Part shown: piece by piece, positions 53,607 to 61,460 of the stretch | How the letters are laid out: each line of letters begins with the position of its first letter | How positions within the stretch are numbered: position 1 is the first letter of the stretch | Sequence record: OL744216.1 | Reading direction: 5' to 3' (one strand) | DNA from: Enterobacter phage vB_ExiM_F4M1E | Length of the DNA: 64,000 nucleotides | Made by a program: the position numbers and the translations under genes | Notes under the pieces: generated by a model | Told to the model about the DNA's origin: nothing | Database searches by the model: none | Seen by the model: the letters and a program-made list of their open reading frames with translations, nothing else

Positions 53607-53953
53607 TCTATAACCCTCATACGGTTGTCTCGTTTCGATGTGTGCATTCTATGATCCAATGATCCTCTTGTCAATACTTTAAATTTAAAATTTTTCATGT
53701 AAGATCTATATAAAGATCCTAAAGATCAATAGAAATCTTCTATTGTTTTCTTGTTTTTAATAATTATTATGAATGAATATGAATAATAATTATAAGATCA
53801 ATAATTTATGAGTGAAACGAATAAATTATAAGATTAATAAAACCGTAGCCCGGAGGGCGAGCGTAGCGAGGTTTTATTTATATTATTGTCTTGTGTGCCT
53901 TTTGAGGAACATACCCCCTGTTGACATCTCGGTGGGTATGTGGAACACTGGAA

Positions 53954-54346
53954 ATGTCTTGGCAGAAGGAGGGTAAAGTGGAAGAGTTGTTTGTGAAGGA
54001 AGGTTCGTTCGTATGCTTCCCTTCTCAATGGGTGTTTGACTTGTCAGGAGACGACCTGAAGAAAATGTTCATCCTGCACTGGAGGTTCAAGTTCTTCGCT
54101 GACCAGGCGTTTGCAGAGGGGAGGGACGTAACCCGGTGCTTCTACGAATCGCAGCAAAAGCTGGCGGTTTTGTTCGGCATGTCTGAAAACTCAAGAACCA
54201 AGGTTGGTGCGTTCCTAAAACGGATGGAAGACAGGGGTTATGTGAAGATACACCGAGACACCGCATTGGTTAATGGGGAGCTAAAACCCCGTCACTACAT
54301 TGTGGTGAACGACAGGATGCTTCTCGGGACTTACAATGTTAATTAA
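53954..54346 (+). CDS. putative winged-helix DNA-binding protein
   Basis: track ORF starts with TTG at 53921; ATG 53954 or the SD-preceded GTG at 53978 is more likely; helix-turn-helix-like SQQKLAVLFGMSENSRTKVGAFLKRMEDRGYV. Confidence 0.45.
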   Translation: MSWQKEGKVEELFVKEGSFVCFPSQWVFDLSGDDLKKMFILHWRFKFFADQAFAEGRDVTRCFYESQQKLAVLFGMSENSRTKVGAFLKRMEDRGYVKIHRDTALVNGELKPRHYIVVNDRMLLGTYNVN

Positions 54347-54411
54347 CAGGCCCTTGACAGGGCCTTTTTCTTTTTGTAATATGGCTGTACTTTAACTGAG
54401 AGGAGAGAAAT

Positions 54412-55302
54412 ATGATTCGTGCGTATCTTGGCGGAAGCCAACTGGATGTCGAATTTGGAACATTCGCCGGGGGTGAGCGTAGCGTCCGCATCAACGGTTA
54501 TATGCTGACAAGCCCATTCAACCCGGACCTGAAAGAGAACATTCCTGAAGGTAAAGACCTGGTGGTTTATGCTCACGTTGATAGTTCAGATGCCATCATG
54601 GATCTGCTTCTGTTTACAGATGCATTCAACCGCTTGGGCCGTGGTACGGGCCACCTGGTTAAAAAGGTGTGCTGCCTTCCGTACATTCCGTATGCCCGAC
54701 AAGACCGGGTAATGGTCCCTGGCGAACCACTGTCTGCCGAGGTGTTTGGCAGAATCATCGGTCTGTGCGCCTTTGACCGTATCATTGTGGATGACCCACA
54801 CTCGGATGTGTCTCCTTCACACATCAAAAACGTCTCCATCTTCGAACAATATGAACTGGCGTTGGATATTCTCGGCCCAGGGTTCTTTGATGATGCCGTT
54901 ATCGTAGCACCGGATGCTGGGGCGATTAAGAAGGTTATCAAACTGGCGAAGAAGGTTAATCACCGACATATCGGTGTGGGCACTAAGCATCGTGATCTTG
55001 TGACCAACAATATCACGGATACAACTTACGCAGGGCCGGATGTTAATGGTAAGCGTGTCATCATGGTGGATGACATCTGCGATGGTGGTCGAACCTTTAT
55101 CGAACTCGGGAAGGTGCTCCGTGCCAATGGTGCCAAAGAAGTGATTCTGTACACCACCCACGGCATTTACTCCTACGGCGCGGATGTGTTCCGTGATGTT
55201 ATCGACGAAGTTTATTCCGCTTACCCTTGGATGAAGAACCTCGAAGGCCGAAACGAAAATAATATTTTCAAATCGGTTGACAAGATGGTCGAGTTCAAGT
55301 AA
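54412..55302 (+). CDS. ribose-phosphate pyrophosphokinase (PRPP synthetase)-like protein; candidate ADP-ribose pyrophosphokinase
   Basis: Prs architecture: PYIPYARQDR, VAPDAGA, VIMVDDICDGGRTF PRPP-binding loop. Confidence 0.7.
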   Translation: MIRAYLGGSQLDVEFGTFAGGERSVRINGYMLTSPFNPDLKENIPEGKDLVVYAHVDSSDAIMDLLLFTDAFNRLGRGTGHLVKKVCCLPYIPYARQDRVMVPGEPLSAEVFGRIIGLCAFDRIIVDDPHSDVSPSHIKNVSIFEQYELALDILGPGFFDDAVIVAPDAGAIKKVIKLAKKVNHRHIGVGTKHRDLVTNNITDTTYAGPDVNGKRVIMVDDICDGGRTFIELGKVLRANGAKEVILYTTHGIYSYGADVFRDVIDEVYSAYPWMKNLEGRNENNIFKSVDKMVEFK

Positions 55303-55353
55303 TATTCACAACGTTCCGGGGCAATGTGCCCCGATTTCACTGAGGAGATTTAT

Positions 55354-57144
55354 ATGTTACATAATGACCTGCCTATTCTGTTTGCTGACTGGTACAAGCC
55401 GAGCCACATTTCCATGTACAGCAAAAAGTCTGAGATCGTACAGGACAACCTGACACCACGCTCAAGCAAACACTTCCAGCACTTCTCTGACAGTGACCAG
55501 CGTGTTATGTCTGCGGGTCTGCAAGGCTTTATTAAGTGGTTCCTGATTGAACACTTCAACCGCGAGTTCTTCGGTCGCCCGAAAGAAGAAGTTATCGGCG
55601 AGTTCAAAGAAATCTGTGACTTGGCGATCGGCCCGGACATGGTTGAAACGTGGGGCTTCGAAAAGCTGCATGACTTGGGCTATCTGCCTGTTGAAATCCG
55701 CGCCCTGCCGGAAGGTACACTTTCTCCGGTACAAGTGCCGCTGTTCACCATTCAGAACACGCACCCGGACTTCTACTGGCTTCCTAACTATCTGGAGTCA
55801 GTGATCTCCTCCGAAAACTGGAAAACCGTGACTACGGCAACCATTTTCTGGCAGTACCGTAAGCTGGCTGAACTGTGGGCGCAGAAAACCTGCGACAACA
55901 ACCTGCACGTCCCGTTCCAGATCCACTGCTTTGCTTATCGTGGTCAGGCTGGTACTCACGATGCGGCACAGTCTGAACTGGGTCAACTGATGAACTCTCA
56001 GGGCACCGACACCATCCCGGCGATCCTGTATGCAAACCGTTATTACGGTATGAAGGGTAAGTTCGTATCCGGCTCCATCCCGGCATCCGAGCACAGCGTT
56101 GCAACAACGAACATCGGCTTCATCATCGGACGCCTCCGTTCTGAGCATCCGGAAATGTCGCTGGATGACCTGCGTTTCCACGCAGAGGTCGAGTTCCTGC
56201 GTCGTTACATCACTGAAATCTTCCCGAAAGGTTTCGTGTCATACGTCGGCGACAGCTACGACTGGTTCCGTCTGATTACAGAGGGTGTTCGCATCCTGAA
56301 AGACGAAATCATGGCCCGTGACGGTCGTGTAGTATTCCGTCCGGACTCCGGCGTACCGGAAGACATCATCTGCGGAACACTCGACTGGCGCAAGATCGAG
56401 GATTTGGATGAAGCTGGCTCTCTGGAACGTGCTGCCGAGTGGGCACTGGAAAGCGCAGAAGAGGAAGTTCGCCAGGACACCCCGCACGGTGAATGTGGCG
56501 ATGAGACTGTTGAACGTTACTTCCTGTTCGATGGTGACCTGTACCTGATGAAGGGTGAGCTTGACTGGAACCGTTATGACAAGCAGTATTACTACATCGA
56601 CGGTAGTCGTGTCCTGTCTTACGAAAAAGCGGAACTGACCAACGAGCAGAAAGGCTCTGTTGAACTGCTGTACGATGTGTTTGGTGGTGACCTGAACTCC
56701 AAAGGCTATCGCACTCTGGATACCCACGTTGGCCTGATTTACGGTGACTCCATCACCGTGGCCCGTGCCAAAGAGATCTTCGAGCGCCTGGAAGCAAAAG
56801 GTTTTGCATCGAACAACGTTGTGTTCGGGGTTGGTTCCTTCACCACCCAGTTCAACACCCGCGATTCTCTGGGTCAGGCCGTGAAGGCTACTGGTGCGGT
56901 TATCGACGGTCAGCAGATCATGGTCGTCAAAGAGCCGAAGACCGACCTCGGTAAGAAGTCTGCACAGGGCTTCCTGAAGGTTGTTCGTGGCGAGGATGGC
57001 GAACTGAAGCTGGTCGATAACCTGCAACTTGAACAGGTTAACGACGCTGACAACGAACTTCGTGTTGTGTTCCGTGATGGCAAGCTGTTGGTTGACGAAA
57101 CGCTGACTGAACTTCGTGAGCGTGTCACAGCAAACCTGAAGTAA
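55354..57144 (+). CDS. nicotinamide phosphoribosyltransferase (Nampt)-family protein, 596 aa
   Basis: NAPRTase/Nampt-family fold; gaggag RBS before ATG 55354; track ORF 55324. Confidence 0.7.
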   Translation: MLHNDLPILFADWYKPSHISMYSKKSEIVQDNLTPRSSKHFQHFSDSDQRVMSAGLQGFIKWFLIEHFNREFFGRPKEEVIGEFKEICDLAIGPDMVETWGFEKLHDLGYLPVEIRALPEGTLSPVQVPLFTIQNTHPDFYWLPNYLESVISSENWKTVTTATIFWQYRKLAELWAQKTCDNNLHVPFQIHCFAYRGQAGTHDAAQSELGQLMNSQGTDTIPAILYANRYYGMKGKFVSGSIPASEHSVATTNIGFIIGRLRSEHPEMSLDDLRFHAEVEFLRRYITEIFPKGFVSYVGDSYDWFRLITEGVRILKDEIMARDGRVVFRPDSGVPEDIICGTLDWRKIEDLDEAGSLERAAEWALESAEEEVRQDTPHGECGDETVERYFLFDGDLYLMKGELDWNRYDKQYYYIDGSRVLSYEKAELTNEQKGSVELLYDVFGGDLNSKGYRTLDTHVGLIYGDSITVARAKEIFERLEAKGFASNNVVFGVGSFTTQFNTRDSLGQAVKATGAVIDGQQIMVVKEPKTDLGKKSAQGFLKVVRGEDGELKLVDNLQLEQVNDADNELRVVFRDGKLLVDETLTELRERVTANLK

Positions 57145-57150
57145 TTTCAG

Positions 57151-57170
57151 CCGCCCTTCGGGGCGGTTTT
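57151..57170 (+). terminator. rho-independent terminator
   Basis: ccgcccttcggggcgg then tttt. Confidence 0.7.
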
Positions 57171-57189
57171 CCCTCATCTGGAGAACAAA

Positions 57190-57381
57190 ATGAGAAACCT
57201 CGTTGCAAAGAACGACCATAACCGTGCAGCAACCCACCTGGATCGCTCTAAGGAGCCTTTACTCACCGTAGACGAGGGTTTGCTTGACTACTACGCAGAA
57301 CACGCTGAGAACGTCGCACAGAGCGAATATGCACGTGCCTCTGTAAATGCCCCTGGGTCACCCCTCCCACCCCGACGTTGA
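57190..57381 (+). CDS. hypothetical protein (63 aa)
   Basis: ggaga RBS. Confidence 0.45.
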   Translation: MRNLVAKNDHNRAATHLDRSKEPLLTVDEGLLDYYAEHAENVAQSEYARASVNAPGSPLPPRR

Positions 57382-57440
57382 CTATCGTTAAGTCCTCCAG
57401 TAAAATGACCATATCACTTGATTAACTTACTGTTGGACTT

Positions 57441-57692
57441 ATGACTCCCTATAAACTTACTCTCAGCTTTGTCACCCCCGATTACACTTCCGAAGAACAC
57501 TCTGAGCACTACCCCACACTTCAAGATGCCATCGACGATGCAGATGATTTAGCTTTCAGCACCGTCGGCTTTCCTCTTGAACATTGGCAAAGTGTTGACT
57601 TCGGTGACGGTAACCGTTTATACTCGTTTTACCCGAATGAGGTTGATAAGACCTCTCGTTATAAACTGGCGATTTTGAAGGAGGAGATTTGA
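57441..57692 (+). CDS. hypothetical acidic protein (83 aa)
   Basis: ORF. Confidence 0.45.
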   Translation: MTPYKLTLSFVTPDYTSEEHSEHYPTLQDAIDDADDLAFSTVGFPLEHWQSVDFGDGNRLYSFYPNEVDKTSRYKLAILKEEI

Positions 57693-58764: not shown

Positions 58765-58840
58765 GCTGGATTAGCTCAGTAGGTAGAGCGCCTCACTTGT
58801 AATGAGGATGTCGCGGGTTCGATTCCTGCATCCAGCACCA
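58765..58840 (+). tRNA. tRNA-Thr (anticodon TGT)
   Basis: hand-folded cloverleaf: acceptor gctggat/atccagc, D arm gctcagtaggtagagc, anticodon loop cttgtaa, T loop ttcgatt, encoded CCA. Confidence 0.8.
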
Positions 58841-58846
58841 GATCAT

Positions 58847-58923
58847 GCAACGTTGCCGGAGTCTGGTAACGGCTCTCGCTGCAAACGAGATGATCACTGG
58901 TTCGAATCCAGTACGTTGCTCCA
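58847..58923 (+). tRNA. tRNA-Cys (anticodon GCA)
   Basis: acceptor gcaacgt/acgttgc, anticodon loop ctgcaaa, T loop ttcgaat, CCA. Confidence 0.75.
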
Positions 58924-58924
58924 A

Positions 58925-59001
58925 GCGCCTTTAGTCCAATTGGTAGAGGCACTACATTCAAAATGTAGGGGTTCCCAGTTCGAATCTGGGAAGGCGCACC
59001 A
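58925..59001 (+). tRNA. class-I tRNA with anticodon CAA (Leu-decoding by anticodon; isotype uncertain)
   Basis: acceptor gcgcctt/aaggcgc, anticodon stem ctaca/tgtag, loop ttcaaaa, 5-nt variable loop, A73, CCA. Confidence 0.6.
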
Positions 59002-59010
59002 AATTATCAT

Positions 59011-59046
59011 GTAACCTATTGACATAGTGTAATTATGCTGTTAAGA
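59011..59046 (+). promoter_or_regulatory. candidate promoter for the embedded AT-hook gene
   Basis: ttgaca, 17 nt, taagat. Confidence 0.35.
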
Positions 59047-59073
59047 TGAATACACTAACTCAATGGGGGCATT

Positions 59074-59448
59074 ATGAGCAAGGCTGCGATTGTAACTCGT
59101 AAGCGTGGTCGCCCAAGCAAAGAAGAGAGCACAGCAATTGCCCTTGAAAAGGCAATGCTTGATCTCCGAGGCGAATTGGCCCGTCTGACGCCGAAGGCCA
59201 TTACTACTCTCGAAAACCTGCTCACAACGGGTACAGAGAAGGTGAAGGAAACCACGGCGAAGTATATCCTTGAGCAGGCGAAAGAGGTTAACAACCTCTA
59301 CACTGAAGAGGATAACGAAGACGACGCAGCAGGCGGCACAACATCTGCCTCTTCTGAAACTCACGCTGGTTCTTCTGACGAGATGAAAAATGCCATCCCG
59401 TTGACTACCCAGATTCGTGAGTATAAAGTAGTAGGCGAAGATGATTAA
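59074..59448 (+). CDS. AT-hook-containing acidic protein (124 aa)
   Basis: RKRGRPSK AT-hook near the N-terminus; acidic C-terminus; embedded within the tRNA array. Confidence 0.55.
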   Translation: MSKAAIVTRKRGRPSKEESTAIALEKAMLDLRGELARLTPKAITTLENLLTTGTEKVKETTAKYILEQAKEVNNLYTEEDNEDDAAGGTTSASSETHAGSSDEMKNAIPLTTQIREYKVVGEDD

Positions 59449-59454
59449 TTGGAA

Positions 59455-59476
59455 GGCTCCCGAAGGAGCCTTTATT
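59455..59476 (+). terminator. rho-independent terminator
   Basis: ggctcc-cgaa-ggagcc then tttatt. Confidence 0.65.
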
Positions 59477-59613
59477 AGAAGTTCTCTTTTGACGGGCACT
59501 TGTTAACGACCCGCAGCATGGCGTCGGTGTACAACGGAGTTTGATGGCGAGGAAGGTCTATAGGGATCAGCGCAGATCCTTGGATATCAGGTGAGCCGTA
59601 CAAAAGAGAATTT

Positions 59614-59701
59614 GGGGAGTTATTTCCGTAGAGGTAGCGGTGCAGACTGTAAATCTGTTGTCATTGCGACTCGGGTGGTTCGACTCCATCACTCCCCACC
59701 A
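59614..59701 (+). tRNA. tRNA-Tyr (anticodon GTA), class II
   Basis: acceptor ggggagt/actcccc, anticodon loop ctgtaaa, long variable arm, T loop ttcgact, CCA. Confidence 0.75.
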
Positions 59702-59707
59702 AATTTT

Positions 59708-59802
59708 AGTAGGATGGCTGAGTGGCTTAAAGCAGCATCTTGGAAAGGTGTCGGTCGCAGTGACCCTGCGGCCCGGGAGTTCAAATCTCCCTCCTACTGC
59801 CA
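59708..59802 (+). tRNA. tRNA-Ser (anticodon GGA), class II
   Basis: acceptor agtagga/tcctact, 3-bp D stem with long D loop, anticodon loop ttggaaa, long variable arm, G73, CCA. Confidence 0.7.
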
Positions 59803-59806
59803 GATC

Positions 59807-59884
59807 GGATCGTTAGCTCAATTGGTTAGCAGCAAGGCACTTTTAATGCCGAGGTTCGGGGTTCGAGTCCCTGACGGTCCACCA
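59807..59884 (+). tRNA. tRNA-Lys (anticodon TTT)
   Basis: acceptor ggatcgt/acggtcc, anticodon loop cttttaa, T loop ttcgagt, CCA. Confidence 0.7.
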
Positions 59885-60044
59885 GAAAGAAGAGGGTCCA
59901 AGCTGGTACTGAGTGCTAAAGCATACTCTAAGCCCAGATGGAGGCCACCCTGAAGTCGTCCAACTGAAGGTCCCTGATTGAGTAATACTTCCCCGCCTGT
60001 CGGGTACAGTTCTCAGTCACACCGGACGGGGCGCACCCAATTAT
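59885..60044 (+). ncRNA. 160-nt non-tRNA spacer inside the array; possible structured RNA
   Basis: no cloverleaf or TTCGA T-loop found by hand; GC-rich internal complementarity (ccccgcctgtcgggt...accggacggggcg). Confidence 0.2.
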
Positions 60045-60120
60045 TGGTCTTTCGTATAATCGGTTATTACGGCGGACTGTTAATCCGTTTATCCGGGTTC
60101 GAGTCCCGGAGGACCAGCCA
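60045..60120 (+). tRNA. tRNA-Asn (anticodon GTT)
   Basis: acceptor tggtctt/aggacca (T1:A72), anticodon stem gcgga/tccgt, loop ctgttaa, T loop ttcgagt, G73, CCA. Confidence 0.65.
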
Positions 60121-60158
60121 ATACTTAATCAATAGTCATTTCGATGGCTATTCGTTAA

Positions 60159-60236
60159 GTCCTGGTAGACAAACTTGGTAAAGTCACCACCCTTTCACGG
60201 TGGGGTTTGAGGGTTCGATCCCCTCTCAGGACGCCA
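60159..60236 (+). tRNA. tRNA-Glu (anticodon TTC)
   Basis: acceptor gtcctgg/tcaggac, anticodon stem ccacc/ggtgg, loop ctttcac, T loop ttcgatc, CCA. Confidence 0.7.
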
Positions 60237-60325
60237 ATCTTTTAGGTCGGTAGATTAATGGAGTTGTGGAACTCCACCGGGTTCCAACCCCGGCTCCGGG
60301 GGTTCGACTCCTCACCTTCCTGCCA
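60237..60325 (+). ncRNA. aberrant tRNA-like element ending in CCA (possible Trp-CCA or Pro-TGG loop; fold ambiguous)
   Basis: T arm gggg-ttcgact-cctc and 3' CCA are present, plus two 5-bp hairpins with 7-nt loops (ggagt-tgtggaa-actcc; ccggg-ttccaac-cccgg); acceptor pairing is poor (5/7) and the 5' half is 7 nt too long. Confidence 0.35.
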
Positions 60326-60327
60326 TC

Positions 60328-60434
60328 TTTGAGGTGTTACAGTTAAATCCTGTGTCGGAAGTGCGAATCGCGCGATAGCTGCCAATTGACAACGGGTAAG
60401 GCTGTACAGGACTCGGACTCCCATCTCAAAACCA
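60328..60434 (+). ncRNA. 107-nt CCA-terminated tRNA-like/ncRNA element
   Basis: ends tttgagg...tctcaaa pair 7/7 and are followed by A-CCA; no canonical T loop inside; hairpin tacag-ttaaatc-ctgtg. Confidence 0.3.
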
Positions 60435-60440
60435 AATTCA

Positions 60441-60516
60441 GGTCCTATGGTATCAGCGGTAAACATACTCGCCTGTCACGCGAGAGTCACGGGTTCGAAT
60501 CCCGTTAGGACCGCCA
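60441..60516 (+). tRNA. tRNA-Asp (anticodon GTC)
   Basis: acceptor ggtccta/taggacc, anticodon stem ctcgc/gcgag, loop ctgtcac, T loop ttcgaat, G73, CCA. Confidence 0.8.
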
Positions 60517-60520
60517 CTTT

Positions 60521-60596
60521 TGGGGATTAGCTCAGTTGGTAGAGCAGGCTCTTGATAAGGGTCAGGTCGCTGGTTCGAGTCCAGCATCCCCAACCA
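60521..60596 (+). tRNA. tRNA-Ile (anticodon GAT)
   Basis: acceptor tggggat/atcccca (T1:A72), D arm agctcagttggtagagc, loop ttgataa, T loop ttcgagt, CCA. Confidence 0.8.
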
Positions 60597-60599
60597 ACA

Positions 60600-60676
60600 C
60601 GGTGTGTAGCTCAGTCTGGTAGAGCGATTGCTTTGGGAGCATTAGGTCCGAGGTTCGAGTCCTCGTACACCGACCA
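60600..60676 (+). tRNA. tRNA-Pro (anticodon TGG)
   Basis: acceptor cggtgtg/tacaccg, D arm gctcagtctggtagagc, loop tttggga, T loop ttcgagt, CCA. Confidence 0.75.
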
Positions 60677-60682
60677 ACTTAT

Positions 60683-60757
60683 TGCGAGGTAGTTCAGCGG
60701 TAGAACAGGGGTCTCATACGCCTCATGTCGGCAGTTCGATTCTGCCCTTCGCAACCA
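60683..60757 (+). tRNA. tRNA-Met (anticodon CAT; elongator, initiator or Ile-lysidine type not resolved)
   Basis: acceptor tgcgagg/cttcgca (T1:A72), loop ctcatac, T loop ttcgatt, CCA. Confidence 0.75.
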
Positions 60758-60762
60758 GCTTT

Positions 60763-60840
60763 GCTCCAGTAGCCCAATTGGCAGAGGCACTTGATTTAGG
60801 TTCAAGTCAGTGATGAGTTCGAATCTCTCCTGGAGTACCA
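60763..60840 (+). tRNA. class-I tRNA with anticodon TAG (Leu-decoding by anticodon; isotype uncertain)
   Basis: acceptor gctccag/ctggagt, anticodon stem cttga/tcaag, loop tttaggt, short variable region, weak 3-bp T stem, A73, CCA. Confidence 0.55.
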
Positions 60841-60847
60841 CATTAAA

Positions 60848-60924
60848 GCATCCATAGTGTCAGTGGTCTAACACTCCGTCCTTCCAAGTCGGAACCCTCG
60901 GTTCGAATCCGAGTGGATGCTCCA
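60848..60924 (+). tRNA. tRNA-Gly (anticodon TCC)
   Basis: acceptor gcatcca/tggatgc, loop cttccaa, T loop ttcgaat, U73, CCA. Confidence 0.75.
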
Positions 60925-60964
60925 ATTTAATTGCCCGTGGTGATCGGGTTATCTCACCCAGTGT

Positions 60965-61040
60965 AGGGGATTAGTTTAATTGGCAAAACAGCGGGTTTTG
61001 ATCCCGCTAACGCGAGGTTCGAATCCTCCATCCCCCGCCA
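60965..61040 (+). tRNA. tRNA-Gln (anticodon TTG)
   Basis: acceptor aggggat/atccccc with A1-C72 mismatch, D stem gttt/aaac, anticodon stem gcggg/cccgc, loop ttttgat, G73, CCA. Confidence 0.7.
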
Positions 61041-61042
61041 AA

Positions 61043-61112
61043 CTAAAGGGTTTTCGAAATGGTAGCGCTGCCGCTCTGCAAACCCACCCGCAAAGCTGCG
61101 AGAACCCTTTAG
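61043..61112 (+). ncRNA. 70-nt hairpin element closed by a perfect 10-bp inverted repeat
   Basis: ctaaagggtt at 61043-61052 and aaccctttag at 61103-61112 enclose ~50 nt with sub-hairpins (ctgcaaa loop; cgca-aagc-tgcg). Confidence 0.35.
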
Positions 61113-61113
61113 T

Positions 61114-61189
61114 GTGGCCTTAATTCAGCAGGTAGAATCCCCGGTTGTGAACCGGGCAGTCGTGGGTTCAAGTCCCACAGGTCACCCCA
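61114..61189 (+). tRNA. tRNA-His (anticodon GTG)
   Basis: acceptor gtggcct/aggtcac, anticodon stem cccgg/ccggg, loop ttgtgaa, T loop ttcaagt, C73, CCA; no encoded G-1. Confidence 0.75.
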
Positions 61190-61194
61190 ACAAT

Positions 61195-61287
61195 GGAAGA
61201 TAGGGCGTAGTGGTACGCACCCGGATTTGAACCCCGGCCCGCTGTGGCGACCCCACGGTGATAGTTCGACTCTATTATCTTCCGCCA
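61195..61287 (+). tRNA. tRNA-Ser (anticodon TGA), class II
   Basis: acceptor ggaagat/atcttcc, 3-bp D stem, loop tttgaac, 22-nt variable arm, T loop ttcgact, G73, CCA. Confidence 0.7.
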
Positions 61288-61291
61288 ATTT

Positions 61292-61379
61292 AGAAGAGTG
61301 GCGAAATCGGTAGCCGCACCGGACCGCTAATCCGGGGTCCCCTCGGGGCCTGAGAGTTCAAGTCTCTCCTCTTCTGCCA
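61292..61379 (+). tRNA. tRNA-Ser (anticodon GCT), class II
   Basis: acceptor agaagag/ctcttct, anticodon stem ccgga/tccgg, loop ccgctaa (C at position 33), long variable arm, T loop ttcaagt, G73, CCA. Confidence 0.65.
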
Positions 61380-61384
61380 AACAT

Positions 61385-61460
61385 GGAACTGTAGCTCAGT
61401 TGGTAGAGCGGTTGCCTGAAGAGCAGCGCGTCAGCGGTTCAAATCCGTTCAGTTCCACCA
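61385..61460 (+). tRNA. tRNA-Phe (anticodon GAA)
   Basis: acceptor ggaactg/cagttcc, D arm agctcagttggtagagc, loop ctgaaga, T loop ttcaaat, A73, CCA. Confidence 0.85.

Follow-up and report, generated by a model that had tools for sequence, protein, structure and literature searches.

The stretch of DNA analysed here, 64,000 nucleotides of Enterobacter phage vB_ExiM_F4M1E (OL744216.1; hereafter the window), comes from a Certrevirus-like lytic myophage and carries two co-oriented genes on the plus strand, an Adps-type gene followed, after a 51-nt spacer, by a Namat-type gene (Table 1). The original prediction had placed a Prs-like gene for a 296-aa protein at position 54412 with a Nampt-like gene next to it, and both ORFs are present there. 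The Prs motifs that it had cited are found in the first protein as LPYIPYARQDR and VDDICDGGRT, and this protein also matches phrog_619 (E 2.5e-84), TIGR01251 (E 4.6e-40) and three Pfam Prs domains, while the second matches NF006629 (E 1e-137) and phrog_448 (E 2e-188). The family matches of both proteins are far beyond chance. The longest ORF for the second gene in the ORF listing runs from 55324 to 57144 and would encode 606 aa. This start was rejected, as its ATG forms the loop of a hairpin and lacks a Shine-Dalgarno sequence; because GAGGAG lies 6 nt before the ATG at 55354 and homologues begin with MLHNDLP, the 596 aa originally given for the Nampt-family protein is the right length.

Table 1. 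Features of the Adps-type and Namat-type gene pair and its surroundings, in positions of the window
Feature	Position	Strand	Basis
Terminator-like hairpin AGGCCC-TTGACA-GGGCCT with T-run, closing the upstream gene (53975-54346 region)	54348-54376	+	sequence scan
Candidate sigma-70-like promoter, TTGACA / 17-nt spacer / TAATAT, directly upstream of the pair	54354-54382	+	10/12 consensus matches only
Shine-Dalgarno GAGAGGAGAG, ending 4 nt before ATG 54412	54398-54407	+	read from sequence
Adps-type gene (Prs-like, predicted ADP-ribose pyrophosphokinase), 296 aa	54412-55302	+	ORF, profile matches, KaOmega orthologue
Lys192 codon, aligned with the catalytic Lys of Adps (SPbetaL1 K162, ICP1 K185)	54985-54987	+	residue map
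PP loop DDICDGGRTF, residues 220-229	55069-55098	+	alignment
Intergenic hairpin CGGGGCA-ATG-TGCCCCG, loop being the non-functional first ATG of the 606-aa ORF	55317-55333	+	read from sequence
Shine-Dalgarno GAGGAG, 6 nt before ATG 55354	55342-55347	+	read from sequence
Namat-type gene (Nampt-like, predicted nicotinamide ADP-ribose transferase), 596 aa	55354-57144	+	start site, profiles, KaOmega orthologue
Selectivity-clamp loop (SCL) S37-S38-K39-H40	55462-55473	+	alignment
Insertion 1, about residues 254-277, about +21 residues, predicted helical, fairly well conserved	56113-56184	+	alignment, prediction
Insertion 2, about residues 344-431, about +81 residues, predicted helix and three-stranded beta-meander	56383-56646	+	alignment, prediction
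SCH adenine-clamp motif GSFTTQFNTRD, residues 494-504	56833-56865	+	alignment to published motif
Terminator-like hairpin CCGCCC-TTCG-GGGCGG with TTTT, 6 nt past the Namat stop codon	57151-57170	+	read from sequence

Judging from the signals around it, the pair appears to be a self-contained unit, with a promoter-like site of its own, a Shine-Dalgarno sequence for each gene and hairpins on both flanks. Both genes are intact and each has a good Shine-Dalgarno sequence, that of the first gene having its AGGAG core at 54401-54405, 6 nt before the ATG. A sigma70-like early promoter common to the genus has been described in the CB7 paper, and the related phage phiTE has annotated terminators at the places homologous to both flanking hairpins, the downstream one of which was missed by the terminator scan because its T-run is short. 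An Rfam search around the operon for riboswitches or other RNAs returned nothing at gathering score. Ten flanking ORFs contain no Macro (Adpp), RyR or Nmnat domain (Pfam, E <= 0.1) and have PHROG matches in families of unknown function only; going by these ten ORFs, the operon is, on its predicted gene content, the core two-gene form of NARP1. Antisense ORFs inside the pair (for example one of 332 aa at 56239-57237 on the minus strand) were judged spurious, with no PHROG match in any of them.

GenBank names for related genes, like the Certrevirus literature, imply a classical salvage pathway, in which a true Prs makes PRPP from ribose-5-phosphate, a true Nampt turns PRPP and nicotinamide into NMN and host enzymes complete the synthesis of NAD+, and the CB7 paper describes the pair exactly so. 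Percent identity was dropped as a means of telling Adps from Prs, since the first protein of the window is about 33% identical to each Adps reference and 32% identical to E. coli Prs, and profile and HMM scores were needed because identity is uninformative. By blastp, the window protein lies somewhat nearer to E. coli Prs, with 94 bits versus 60-66 for the reference Adps proteins, and reaches only 80 bits with the Adps of Bacillus phage SPbetaL1, which favors salvage, as do the family cutoffs that the two window proteins pass (TIGR01251, 137 versus 113 bits; NF006629, 459 versus 405 bits). However, the same family-level cutoffs are passed by characterised enzymes, namely the Adps of phage Bas63 and all three Namats, and for this reason the TIGR01251 subfamily cutoff, the sole Prs cutoff that the window protein passes, does not discriminate between Adps and Prs. 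Against a salvage role, the Prs-like protein falls far short of every NCBIfam equivalog- or PRK-level Prs cutoff (108 versus 297 and 74 versus 536 bits, for instance). The window protein scores 107.6 bits with NF002320 (cutoff 297), where Adps references score 74-101 and E. coli Prs 532.6, and 100.7 bits with NF002095 (cutoff 296), its two highest scores among these models. With phrog_619 it scores 284 bits, the three Adps references 248-333 and E. coli Prs 193, and with TIGR01251 its 137 bits compare with 98-139 for the Adps references and 423 for E. coli Prs. HMMs were also built from the characterised Adps and Namat enzymes and scored against held-out members, and those for Adps gave 127-159 bits for the window protein, 109-151 for held-out Adps and 72-97 for Prs. 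Profile and HMM scores alike suggest that the Prs-like protein groups with Adps and not with cellular Prs.

The catalytic Lys of Adps, which sits on a beta-hairpin, is essential (10.1101/2024.02.11.579819, PMC13586617), and its counterpart in the first protein, Lys192, is necessary but not discriminating because Prs has a Lys too; residues of the acceptor site likewise cannot separate the two enzymes, being common to both. The PP loop of the window protein, DDICDGGRTF, has exactly the sequence found in Bas63 Adps and compares with DDICDGAASF in the Adps of Vibrio phage ICP1, DDLSSFGGTF in SPbetaL1 and DDMIDTGGTL in E. coli Prs. In ICP1 Adps the PP loop and donor site are remodelled over C215-S220, with F221 and F223 serving as a lid. 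C223 and F229 of the window protein are equivalent to C215 and F221 of ICP1, positions occupied by I and L in E. coli Prs, whereas A218, A219, S220 and F223 of ICP1 are replaced by G226, R227, T228 and E231. Alignments to Prs models and PDB entries end at residues 257-268 of 296, and the last 28-39 residues align with no part of the Prs C-terminus, the loss of the C-terminal alpha11-alpha12 module of Prs being an Adps feature that this protein may share. A PDB sequence search with this protein returned Prs entries only, from a copy of the database that holds none of the ICP1 Adps structures. The assignment to Adps is softer than the assignment of its partner to Namat.

For the second protein, a published motif separates the two enzyme families. 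The SCH motif of Namat is GS-X-Phi1-X-Phi2-X-Phi3-TRD, with adenine contact assigned to positions 3 and 7 only in a 2026 structure paper on Namat (PMC12774641), and the window protein has an aromatic residue at both of these adenine-stacking positions (F496 and F500), with Phi1=T, Phi2=Q, Phi3=N and a non-aromatic Thr at position 5. The signature is kept in 120/120 of the closest homologues. The KVP40 Nampt (NadV), in contrast, has GGGLLQQLDRD at this site in place of the clamp motif, and in the alignment against it the Nampt-type GGG-LLQ segment is absent from the window protein. According to the published rule for the SCL, either an Arg at position 3 stacks, or a Lys or Tyr occupies position 3 and stacking falls to position 4 (PMC12774641). 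With SSKH, the window protein has Lys at position 3, like Bas63 (SDKW) and ICP1 (HGKY), followed by a ring residue, so that the candidate for stacking at position 4 is His40 where Bas63 has Trp and ICP1 has Tyr. The K-H pair is conserved across homologues, and His40 may stack on the adenine. By alignment, the second protein carries the adenine clamp of Namat and not the Nampt-type segment, which stands against the salvage pathway.

The catalytic core of this protein is intact, with D12, Y14, F193, R196, D219, H247, R329, D331, G464, D465 and R503 corresponding to D13', Y15', F189, R192, D215, the catalytic His, R306, D308, G360, D361 and R399' of the SPbetaL1 Namat, and over 120 homologues it is 75-97% conserved. 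In a PDB search the best solved matches were 9w5x and 9w5w at 417 bits, whose sequence is that of SPbetaL1 Namat across the printed alignment, whereas true Nampts scored 191 (Xanthomonas) and about 157 (human). HMMs from characterised Namats gave 480-561 bits for the window protein, 494-559 for held-out Namats and 196-260 for the KVP40 Nampt. The NF006629 score of the window protein (459 bits, cutoff 405) compares with 468-594 for three Namats, although this model and phrog_448 were dropped as discriminators between Namat and Nampt since KVP40 NadV passes both. The alignments proposed as a check by the original prediction, against Adps and Namat on one side and Prs and Nampt on the other, have therefore favored NARP1 on both counts: 417 bits to SPbetaL1 Namat versus at most 191 for Nampts, and a first protein that is Adps-like on profiles. 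All published sequence features of Adps and Namat that could be checked are either present or compatible with this reading. The accompanying caution that sequence alone cannot distinguish the two possibilities no longer applies to the Nampt-like partner, in which the published motif is present, and holds in part for the Prs-like protein, where discrimination is weaker.

Two further points weigh against salvage. No Nmnat partner lies in the flanking ORFs, and in published work SPbetaL1 Adps made ADPR-PP from ADPR and ATP with no product in a Prs-type control, the substrate of which was PRPP and ATP according to the paper's text and ribose-5-phosphate according to the figure legend. A classical salvage pair is very improbable on this evidence, and the pair is best read as the core two-gene NARP1 operon in a Certrevirus-like lytic myophage, a reading to which we would give a probability of roughly 0.88. 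Its substrate specificity and anti-defence effect we infer from homology to characterised enzymes that are 33-46% identical.

The NARP1 reading leaves room for some classical activity in the window Namat, because published in vitro work has found that Namat enzymes can still convert PRPP to NMN. In a dual role, the pair would act as NARP1 when ADP-ribose is abundant while the Namat-like enzyme also made NMN from host PRPP, boosting NAD+ in cells where no defence is active. The fully conserved catalytic core would allow this. However, in a published assay only NAD+ was formed when both substrates were offered, and NARP1 phages did not raise NAD+ in defence-free cells (10.1101/2024.02.11.579819), which makes a dual role very improbable.

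The original prediction had also remarked, correctly, that the Nampt-like protein is about 100 aa longer than typical Nampt: it has 596 aa versus 491 aa in SPbetaL1 Namat, and the surplus consists of two insertions. Because the extra length of about 100 aa is common to the validated Bas63 Namat (593 aa, with insertions at the same two sites) and to all 120 closest homologues found, it is no anomaly of the window protein. Insertion 2 has a fixed site in the Namats of Vequintavirinae and Felixounavirus phages and is absent from the SPbetaL1 and ICP1 enzymes. It is hypervariable, evolving roughly 2-3 times faster than the remainder of the protein and ranging from 65 to 105 aa across homologues, is confidently predicted to fold as a subdomain, and gave no detectable relative in a fold search. 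A full-length AlphaFold (AF2) model of the Namat was too poor for judging adenine stacking or where the insertion sits relative to the active site, its pLDDT averaging 56 and staying under 50 in the core and N-terminus. That the insertion 2 subdomain is a functional module rather than neutral decoration is doubtful; if it were one, it might serve to dock the Adps hexamer, so that the labile ADPR-PP intermediate is channelled, or present a rapidly changing surface by which Namat evades a host-encoded inhibitor of NAD+ reconstitution.

An HNH endonuclease gene interrupts the Namat gene in three sister phages (phiTE, CB7 and DU_PP_I), in phiTE at insertion 1, and the CB7 paper states that the interrupted gene is not spliced. 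Such disruption by homing endonucleases suggests that the pair might be a decaying, non-functional pseudo-operon. In the window, however, neither of the HNH genes is present, the two reading frames are whole, each behind a good Shine-Dalgarno sequence, all catalytic residues are retained, and the core is conserved across homologues as given above, all of which makes decay hardly credible here.

Near-identical operons occur in sister phages. Proteins gp285 and gp286 of Klebsiella phage vB_KaeM_KaOmega (MN013077) are 99.7% and 99.3% identical to the Adps- and Namat-type proteins of the window, differing at a few positions (such as 184, I in the window and T in KaOmega), and relatives within Certrevirus (KaOmega, CR3, CR8, CR9, PBES 02 and PcCB7V) share the synteny, in which a phrog_8453 gene precedes the pair, small ORFs follow it and a tRNA array is present. 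At the nucleotide level, identity is 95% over 90% of the region. The published NARP1 catalogue, which covers 859 phages in Tables S1 and S2, includes the orthologues of KaOmega (MN013077_00282 and MN013077_00283), CR3, CR8, phiTE and PcCB7V, with the labels 'Namat within 10 genes: Yes' and 'Adps-associated' (10.1101/2024.02.11.579819); of the KaOmega pair, gp285 stands in Table S1 and gp286, as 'Adps-associated', in Table S2. By way of near-identical orthologues, the module is an already catalogued instance of NARP1, a correct but ordinary find. A literature search for NARP1 and Vequintavirinae together found no paper.

Drawn by homology from the NARP1 of other phages, the mechanism would comprise three steps. 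An NAD+-depleting host defence with SIR2, TIR or SEFIR effectors (Thoeris, DSR1/2, SIR2-HerA and similar) would split NAD+ into ADP-ribose and nicotinamide; Adps would then attach the beta,gamma-pyrophosphate of ATP to ADP-ribose at 1'' of the terminal ribose, forming ADPR-PP; and Namat would swap the pyrophosphate of ADPR-PP for nicotinamide, yielding NAD+ directly and allowing phage replication to go on. The module would thus predict replication on hosts whose NAD+-depleting defences produce ADP-ribose (type I Thoeris, DSR1/2, SIR2-HerA and SEFIR). That prediction leaves out aRES, whose product is ADPR-1''-phosphate, since none of the ten flanking ORFs is an Adpp phosphatase gene; by the logic of the NARP1-AP paper, a phage that lacks Adpp is not expected to overcome this system. 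This bears on predicting the host range of Certrevirus phages under consideration for Pectobacterium and Cronobacter biocontrol. For annotation, adps and namat (NARP1) are the names to use, since the GenBank records of the sister phages still say Prs and 'nicotinase phosphoribosyltransferase', and names of the ribose-phosphate pyrophosphokinase and nicotinamide phosphoribosyltransferase type are misleading. Current understanding is unchanged, with a catalogued instance confirmed and the NARP1 reading of the original prediction supported by the SCH clamp, the profile and HMM scores, the architecture and the catalogued orthologues.

NARP2 (the KVP40 Nampt NadV with the Nmnat NatV) and cellular Nampt/Prs salvage draw on the same two protein superfamilies as the window pair and the same nicotinamide-ribosyl coupling chemistry, yet NARP2 pairs Nampt with Nmnat whereas the partner in the window is a Prs-like gene, and no phage with both NARP1 and NARP2 was found in the published survey (10.1101/2024.02.11.579819). 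NARP1-AP of Vibrio phage Gary (Adps, the Macro-domain phosphatase Adpp, and Namat) and RyDEP-assisted NARP1 have the core Adps and Namat in common with the window. The enzymes of SPbetaL1 and ICP1, for which structures exist (Namat crystals 9w5w and 9w5x for SPbetaL1, and an Adps crystal and cryo-EM for ICP1), share with the window the catalytic core and the adenine clamp; their Namats have 488-491 aa and lack both insertions, and the SPbetaL1 SCL stacks with Arg40. The NARP1 of Escherichia phage Bas63 (JohannRWettstein) has the same gene order and nearly the same lengths (293 and 593 aa versus 296 and 596 aa), at 33-37% identity for Adps and 40-42% for Namat. Its differences from the window lie in the SCH (GSYTYQYMTRD, with Tyr at position 5, versus GSFTTQFNTRD, with Thr), in the H-D/C-F segment, where Cys192 of the window Namat is Asp, and in the large Namat insertion, the sequence of which is essentially unrelated. 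It has in common with the window the catalytic Lys, the Adps PP loop, the SCL Lys at position 3 and both Namat insertion sites, and it is in this phage that deletion of the pair (bas63_0079/0080) abolished evasion of SIR2-HerA and that ADPR-PP was seen in vivo.

The adjacent Prs-like and Nampt-like genes of phage vB_ExiM_F4M1E very probably work as NARP1, as had been proposed from the arrangement of the pair; we put the probability of this sequence-based reading at about 0.88. Its support comes from the adenine-clamp (SCH) motif, the scores of the second protein in Namat HMM and PDB searches, and the profile scores, residue K192 and donor-site (PP) loop of the first. NARP1 was defined on genes 79-80 of phage Bas63 and on purified SPbetaL1 enzymes. 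Adps, an ADP-ribose (ADPR) pyrophosphokinase, converts ADPR and ATP to ADPR-PP, with no product in a Prs-type control reaction, and Namat combines ADPR-PP, which it favours over PRPP, with nicotinamide to yield NAD+; membership, found in 859 phages, means placement in an Adps clade specific to phages and a Namat homologue in the neighbourhood (10.1101/2024.02.11.579819). In Namat a catalytic core of the Nampt type is joined by a 'selectivity clamp' for adenine (2026 structure paper, PMC12774641). In Adps the catalytic Lys sits on a beta-hairpin and the ATP donor is held by a remodelled PP loop, while the acceptor groove stays Prs-like and the C-terminal alpha11-alpha12 module is lost (2026 structure paper, PMC13586617).

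Features of the probable NARP1 region of vB_ExiM_F4M1E
Feature	Position	Strand	Remarks
Promoter-like site TTGACA, 17-nt spacer, TAGAAT	in 53646-53816	-	11/12 positions
Upstream gene, phrog_8453 (unknown function)	53921-54346	+	TrmB-like winged-helix match, sub-threshold (E 0.06)
Hairpin and T-run, end of preceding gene	54348-54376	+	from sequence
Promoter-like site TTGACA, 17-nt spacer, TAATAT	54354-54382	+	overlaps upstream hairpin
adps-type ORF	54412-55302	+	296 aa, from ORF list
Intergenic hairpin	55317-55333		perfect 7 bp; 3-nt loop is ATG 55324; from sequence
namat-type CDS	55354-57144	+	596 aa, from second ATG of ORF
tRNA array	58765-61460	+	18 genes; starts 1.6 kb downstream of operon

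Both genes were recovered as the original prediction had them, a Prs-like gene followed by one of the Nampt family. In profile searches the first protein, which has the motifs LPYIPYARQDR and VDDICDGGRT, hits phrog_619 (E 2.5e-84), TIGR01251 (E 4.6e-40) and three Prs domains of Pfam, and its neighbour hits phrog_448 (E 2e-188) and NF006629 (E 1e-137). Counted from its first ATG the second ORF would encode 606 aa, a start that was dropped because this ATG forms the hairpin loop and, on reading the junction, has no ribosome-binding site. The second ATG follows GAGGAG by 6 nt and homologues start MLHNDLP, so the predicted 596 aa is the right length. The GenBank record of the sister Klebsiella phage KaOmega takes the equivalent of the spurious ATG as the namat start. 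The spacer hairpin itself might play a part in mRNA stability or in coupling the translation of the two genes. Both genes also match phrog_12872, a profile of 547 positions in which Adps-like proteins cover about 31-224 and Namat-like proteins about 373-537, a layout that suggests a natural Adps-Namat fusion in some phages, which would tie the two enzymes together as a Rosetta-stone link.

The Nampt-like protein was aligned with the Bas63, SPbetaL1 and ICP1 Namats and the Nampt (NARP2) of KVP40, all fetched from the phage collection. Its SCH segment reads GSFTTQFNTRD, compared with GSYTYQYMTRD in Bas63, GSFTYQYNTRD in SPbetaL1, GSYTYQYVTRD in ICP1 and GGGLLQQLDRD in KVP40, and the signature is kept in 120/120 of the closest database homologues, with an aromatic residue at position 3 in all. 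The residue map shows every catalytic position retained (D12, Y14, F193, R196, D219, H247, R329, D331, G464, D465 and R503), and the selectivity-clamp loop, S-S-K-H, has Lys at position 3 as in Bas63 (SDKW) and ICP1 (HGKY). HMMs built from characterised Namats score the protein at 480-561 bits, held-out Namats at 494-559 and the KVP40 Nampt at 196-260. The PDB sequence search gave 9w5x and 9w5w as top matches (417 bits), their printed alignment being the SPbetaL1 Namat sequence, against 191 bits for the true Nampt of Xanthomonas and ~157 bits for that of human. The second-best solved relative, 9ke8/9keo (357 bits), is named only 'nicotinamide phosphoribosyltransferase' and has GAQTYQRNTRD at the SCH position. 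Beside the nicotinamide-stacking Phe lies Cys192 (codon 55927-55929, segment IHCFAYRG), invariant in a Vequintavirinae alignment (n=32 sequences), whereas Bas63, SPbetaL1, ICP1 and KVP40 have Asp there (HDF).

For the Prs-like protein percent identity is no help, at 33% to each Adps reference and 32% to E. coli Prs. Profile scores fall with the Adps references: phrog_619 gives 284 bits (references 248-333, E. coli Prs 193), TIGR01251 137 (98-139, 423) and NF002320 108 (74-101, 533), and Adps HMMs give 127-159 (held-out Adps 109-151, Prs 72-97). K192 aligns with K162 of SPbetaL1 and K185 of ICP1, and the PP loop reads DDICDGGRTF, residue for residue as in Bas63 Adps, against DDMIDTGGTL in E. 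coli Prs. Alignments to Prs models end at about residue 257-268, and sequence alignment found no similarity between the tail and the Prs C-terminus. The assignment as Adps is nonetheless softer than the Namat call: blastp places E. coli Prs (94 bits) ahead of SPbetaL1 Adps (80 bits) and several ICP1 donor-site residues differ.

The Nampt-like protein had also been flagged as about 100 aa too long. The extra length is real and stems from insertions at 254-277 (~21 residues) and 344-431 (~81) that SPbetaL1 Namat lacks, but it is a clade feature rather than an anomaly, since Bas63 Namat (593 aa, validated in vivo) has insertions at the same two sites and homologues from Felixounavirus, Pakpunavirus and all Vequintavirinae align end to end (555-598 aa). 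Insertion 1 shows fairly good conservation. Among the 120 homologues no stretch varies more than insertion 2, at 12-28% identity to the window protein versus 75-97% in the core and with a region length of 65-105 aa. AlphaFold predicts insertion 2 with confidence, at pLDDT 85-96 within an otherwise poor full-length model and at mean pLDDT 76 and pTM 0.66 when taken alone, and folds it as one helix on a three-stranded meander. The Namat structure paper (PMC12774641) makes no mention of an insertion. This hypervariable subdomain, common to Namats of Gram-negative myophages, is the single point that merits further attention.

Transcription changes strand at about 53.7-53.9 kb, and the two promoter-like sites are divergent and flank the switch region; cumulative GC skew across the window is lowest at 52-54 kb. 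The phrog_8453 gene, the first + strand gene past the switch, also lies beside the pair in KaOmega and phiTE and is annotated 'transcriptional regulator' in PcCB7V. A strong Shine-Dalgarno sequence precedes ATG 54412, and a hairpin (CCGCCC-TTCG-GGGCGG) with TTTT follows the namat stop codon; phiTE has annotated terminators at the homologous places on both sides of the pair. Macro, RyR and Nmnat domains are absent from the ten flanking ORFs, which argues for a core two-gene NARP1 rather than NARP1-AP. Antisense ORFs had no family match, and no Rfam family reached threshold around the operon.

All Megablast matches of 54000-57600 are to Vequintavirinae myophages, Certrevirus among them, and KaOmega is the top one (MN013077; 95% identical across 90% of the query). 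By tblastn its proteins are 99.7% (Prs-like, gp285) and 99.3% (Nampt-like, gp286) identical, and the local order is the same: small upstream gene, pair, several small ORFs and long tRNA array. Past tRNA-His the window has an additional tRNA-Ser(tga), in the place of a 672-nt CDS (gp312) of KaOmega. In phiTE (JQ015307, 1639-4601; window 55303-57144) the module holds two HNH endonuclease genes, both missing from the window. One occupies the adps-namat spacer; the other cuts namat into CDSs of 278 and 332 aa, between window residues 261 and 268, within insertion 1. Since the equivalent element of CB7 is not spliced, according to the CB7 paper, the gene is expressed in pieces.

Older Certrevirus literature and GenBank records still call the pair PRPP/NMN salvage. 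The literature search found no paper tying NARP1 explicitly to Vequintavirinae and no experiments on any Certrevirus NARP1. The module is nevertheless already catalogued as NARP1, since supplementary tables published with the discovery of that system (10.1101/2024.02.11.579819) mark KaOmega MN013077_00282, one residue off the window protein, 'Namat within 10 genes: Yes', class the Namat homologue MN013077_00283 as 'Adps-associated', and also contain the orthologues of CR3, CR8, phiTE and PcCB7V. Neither the system nor the lineage is new.
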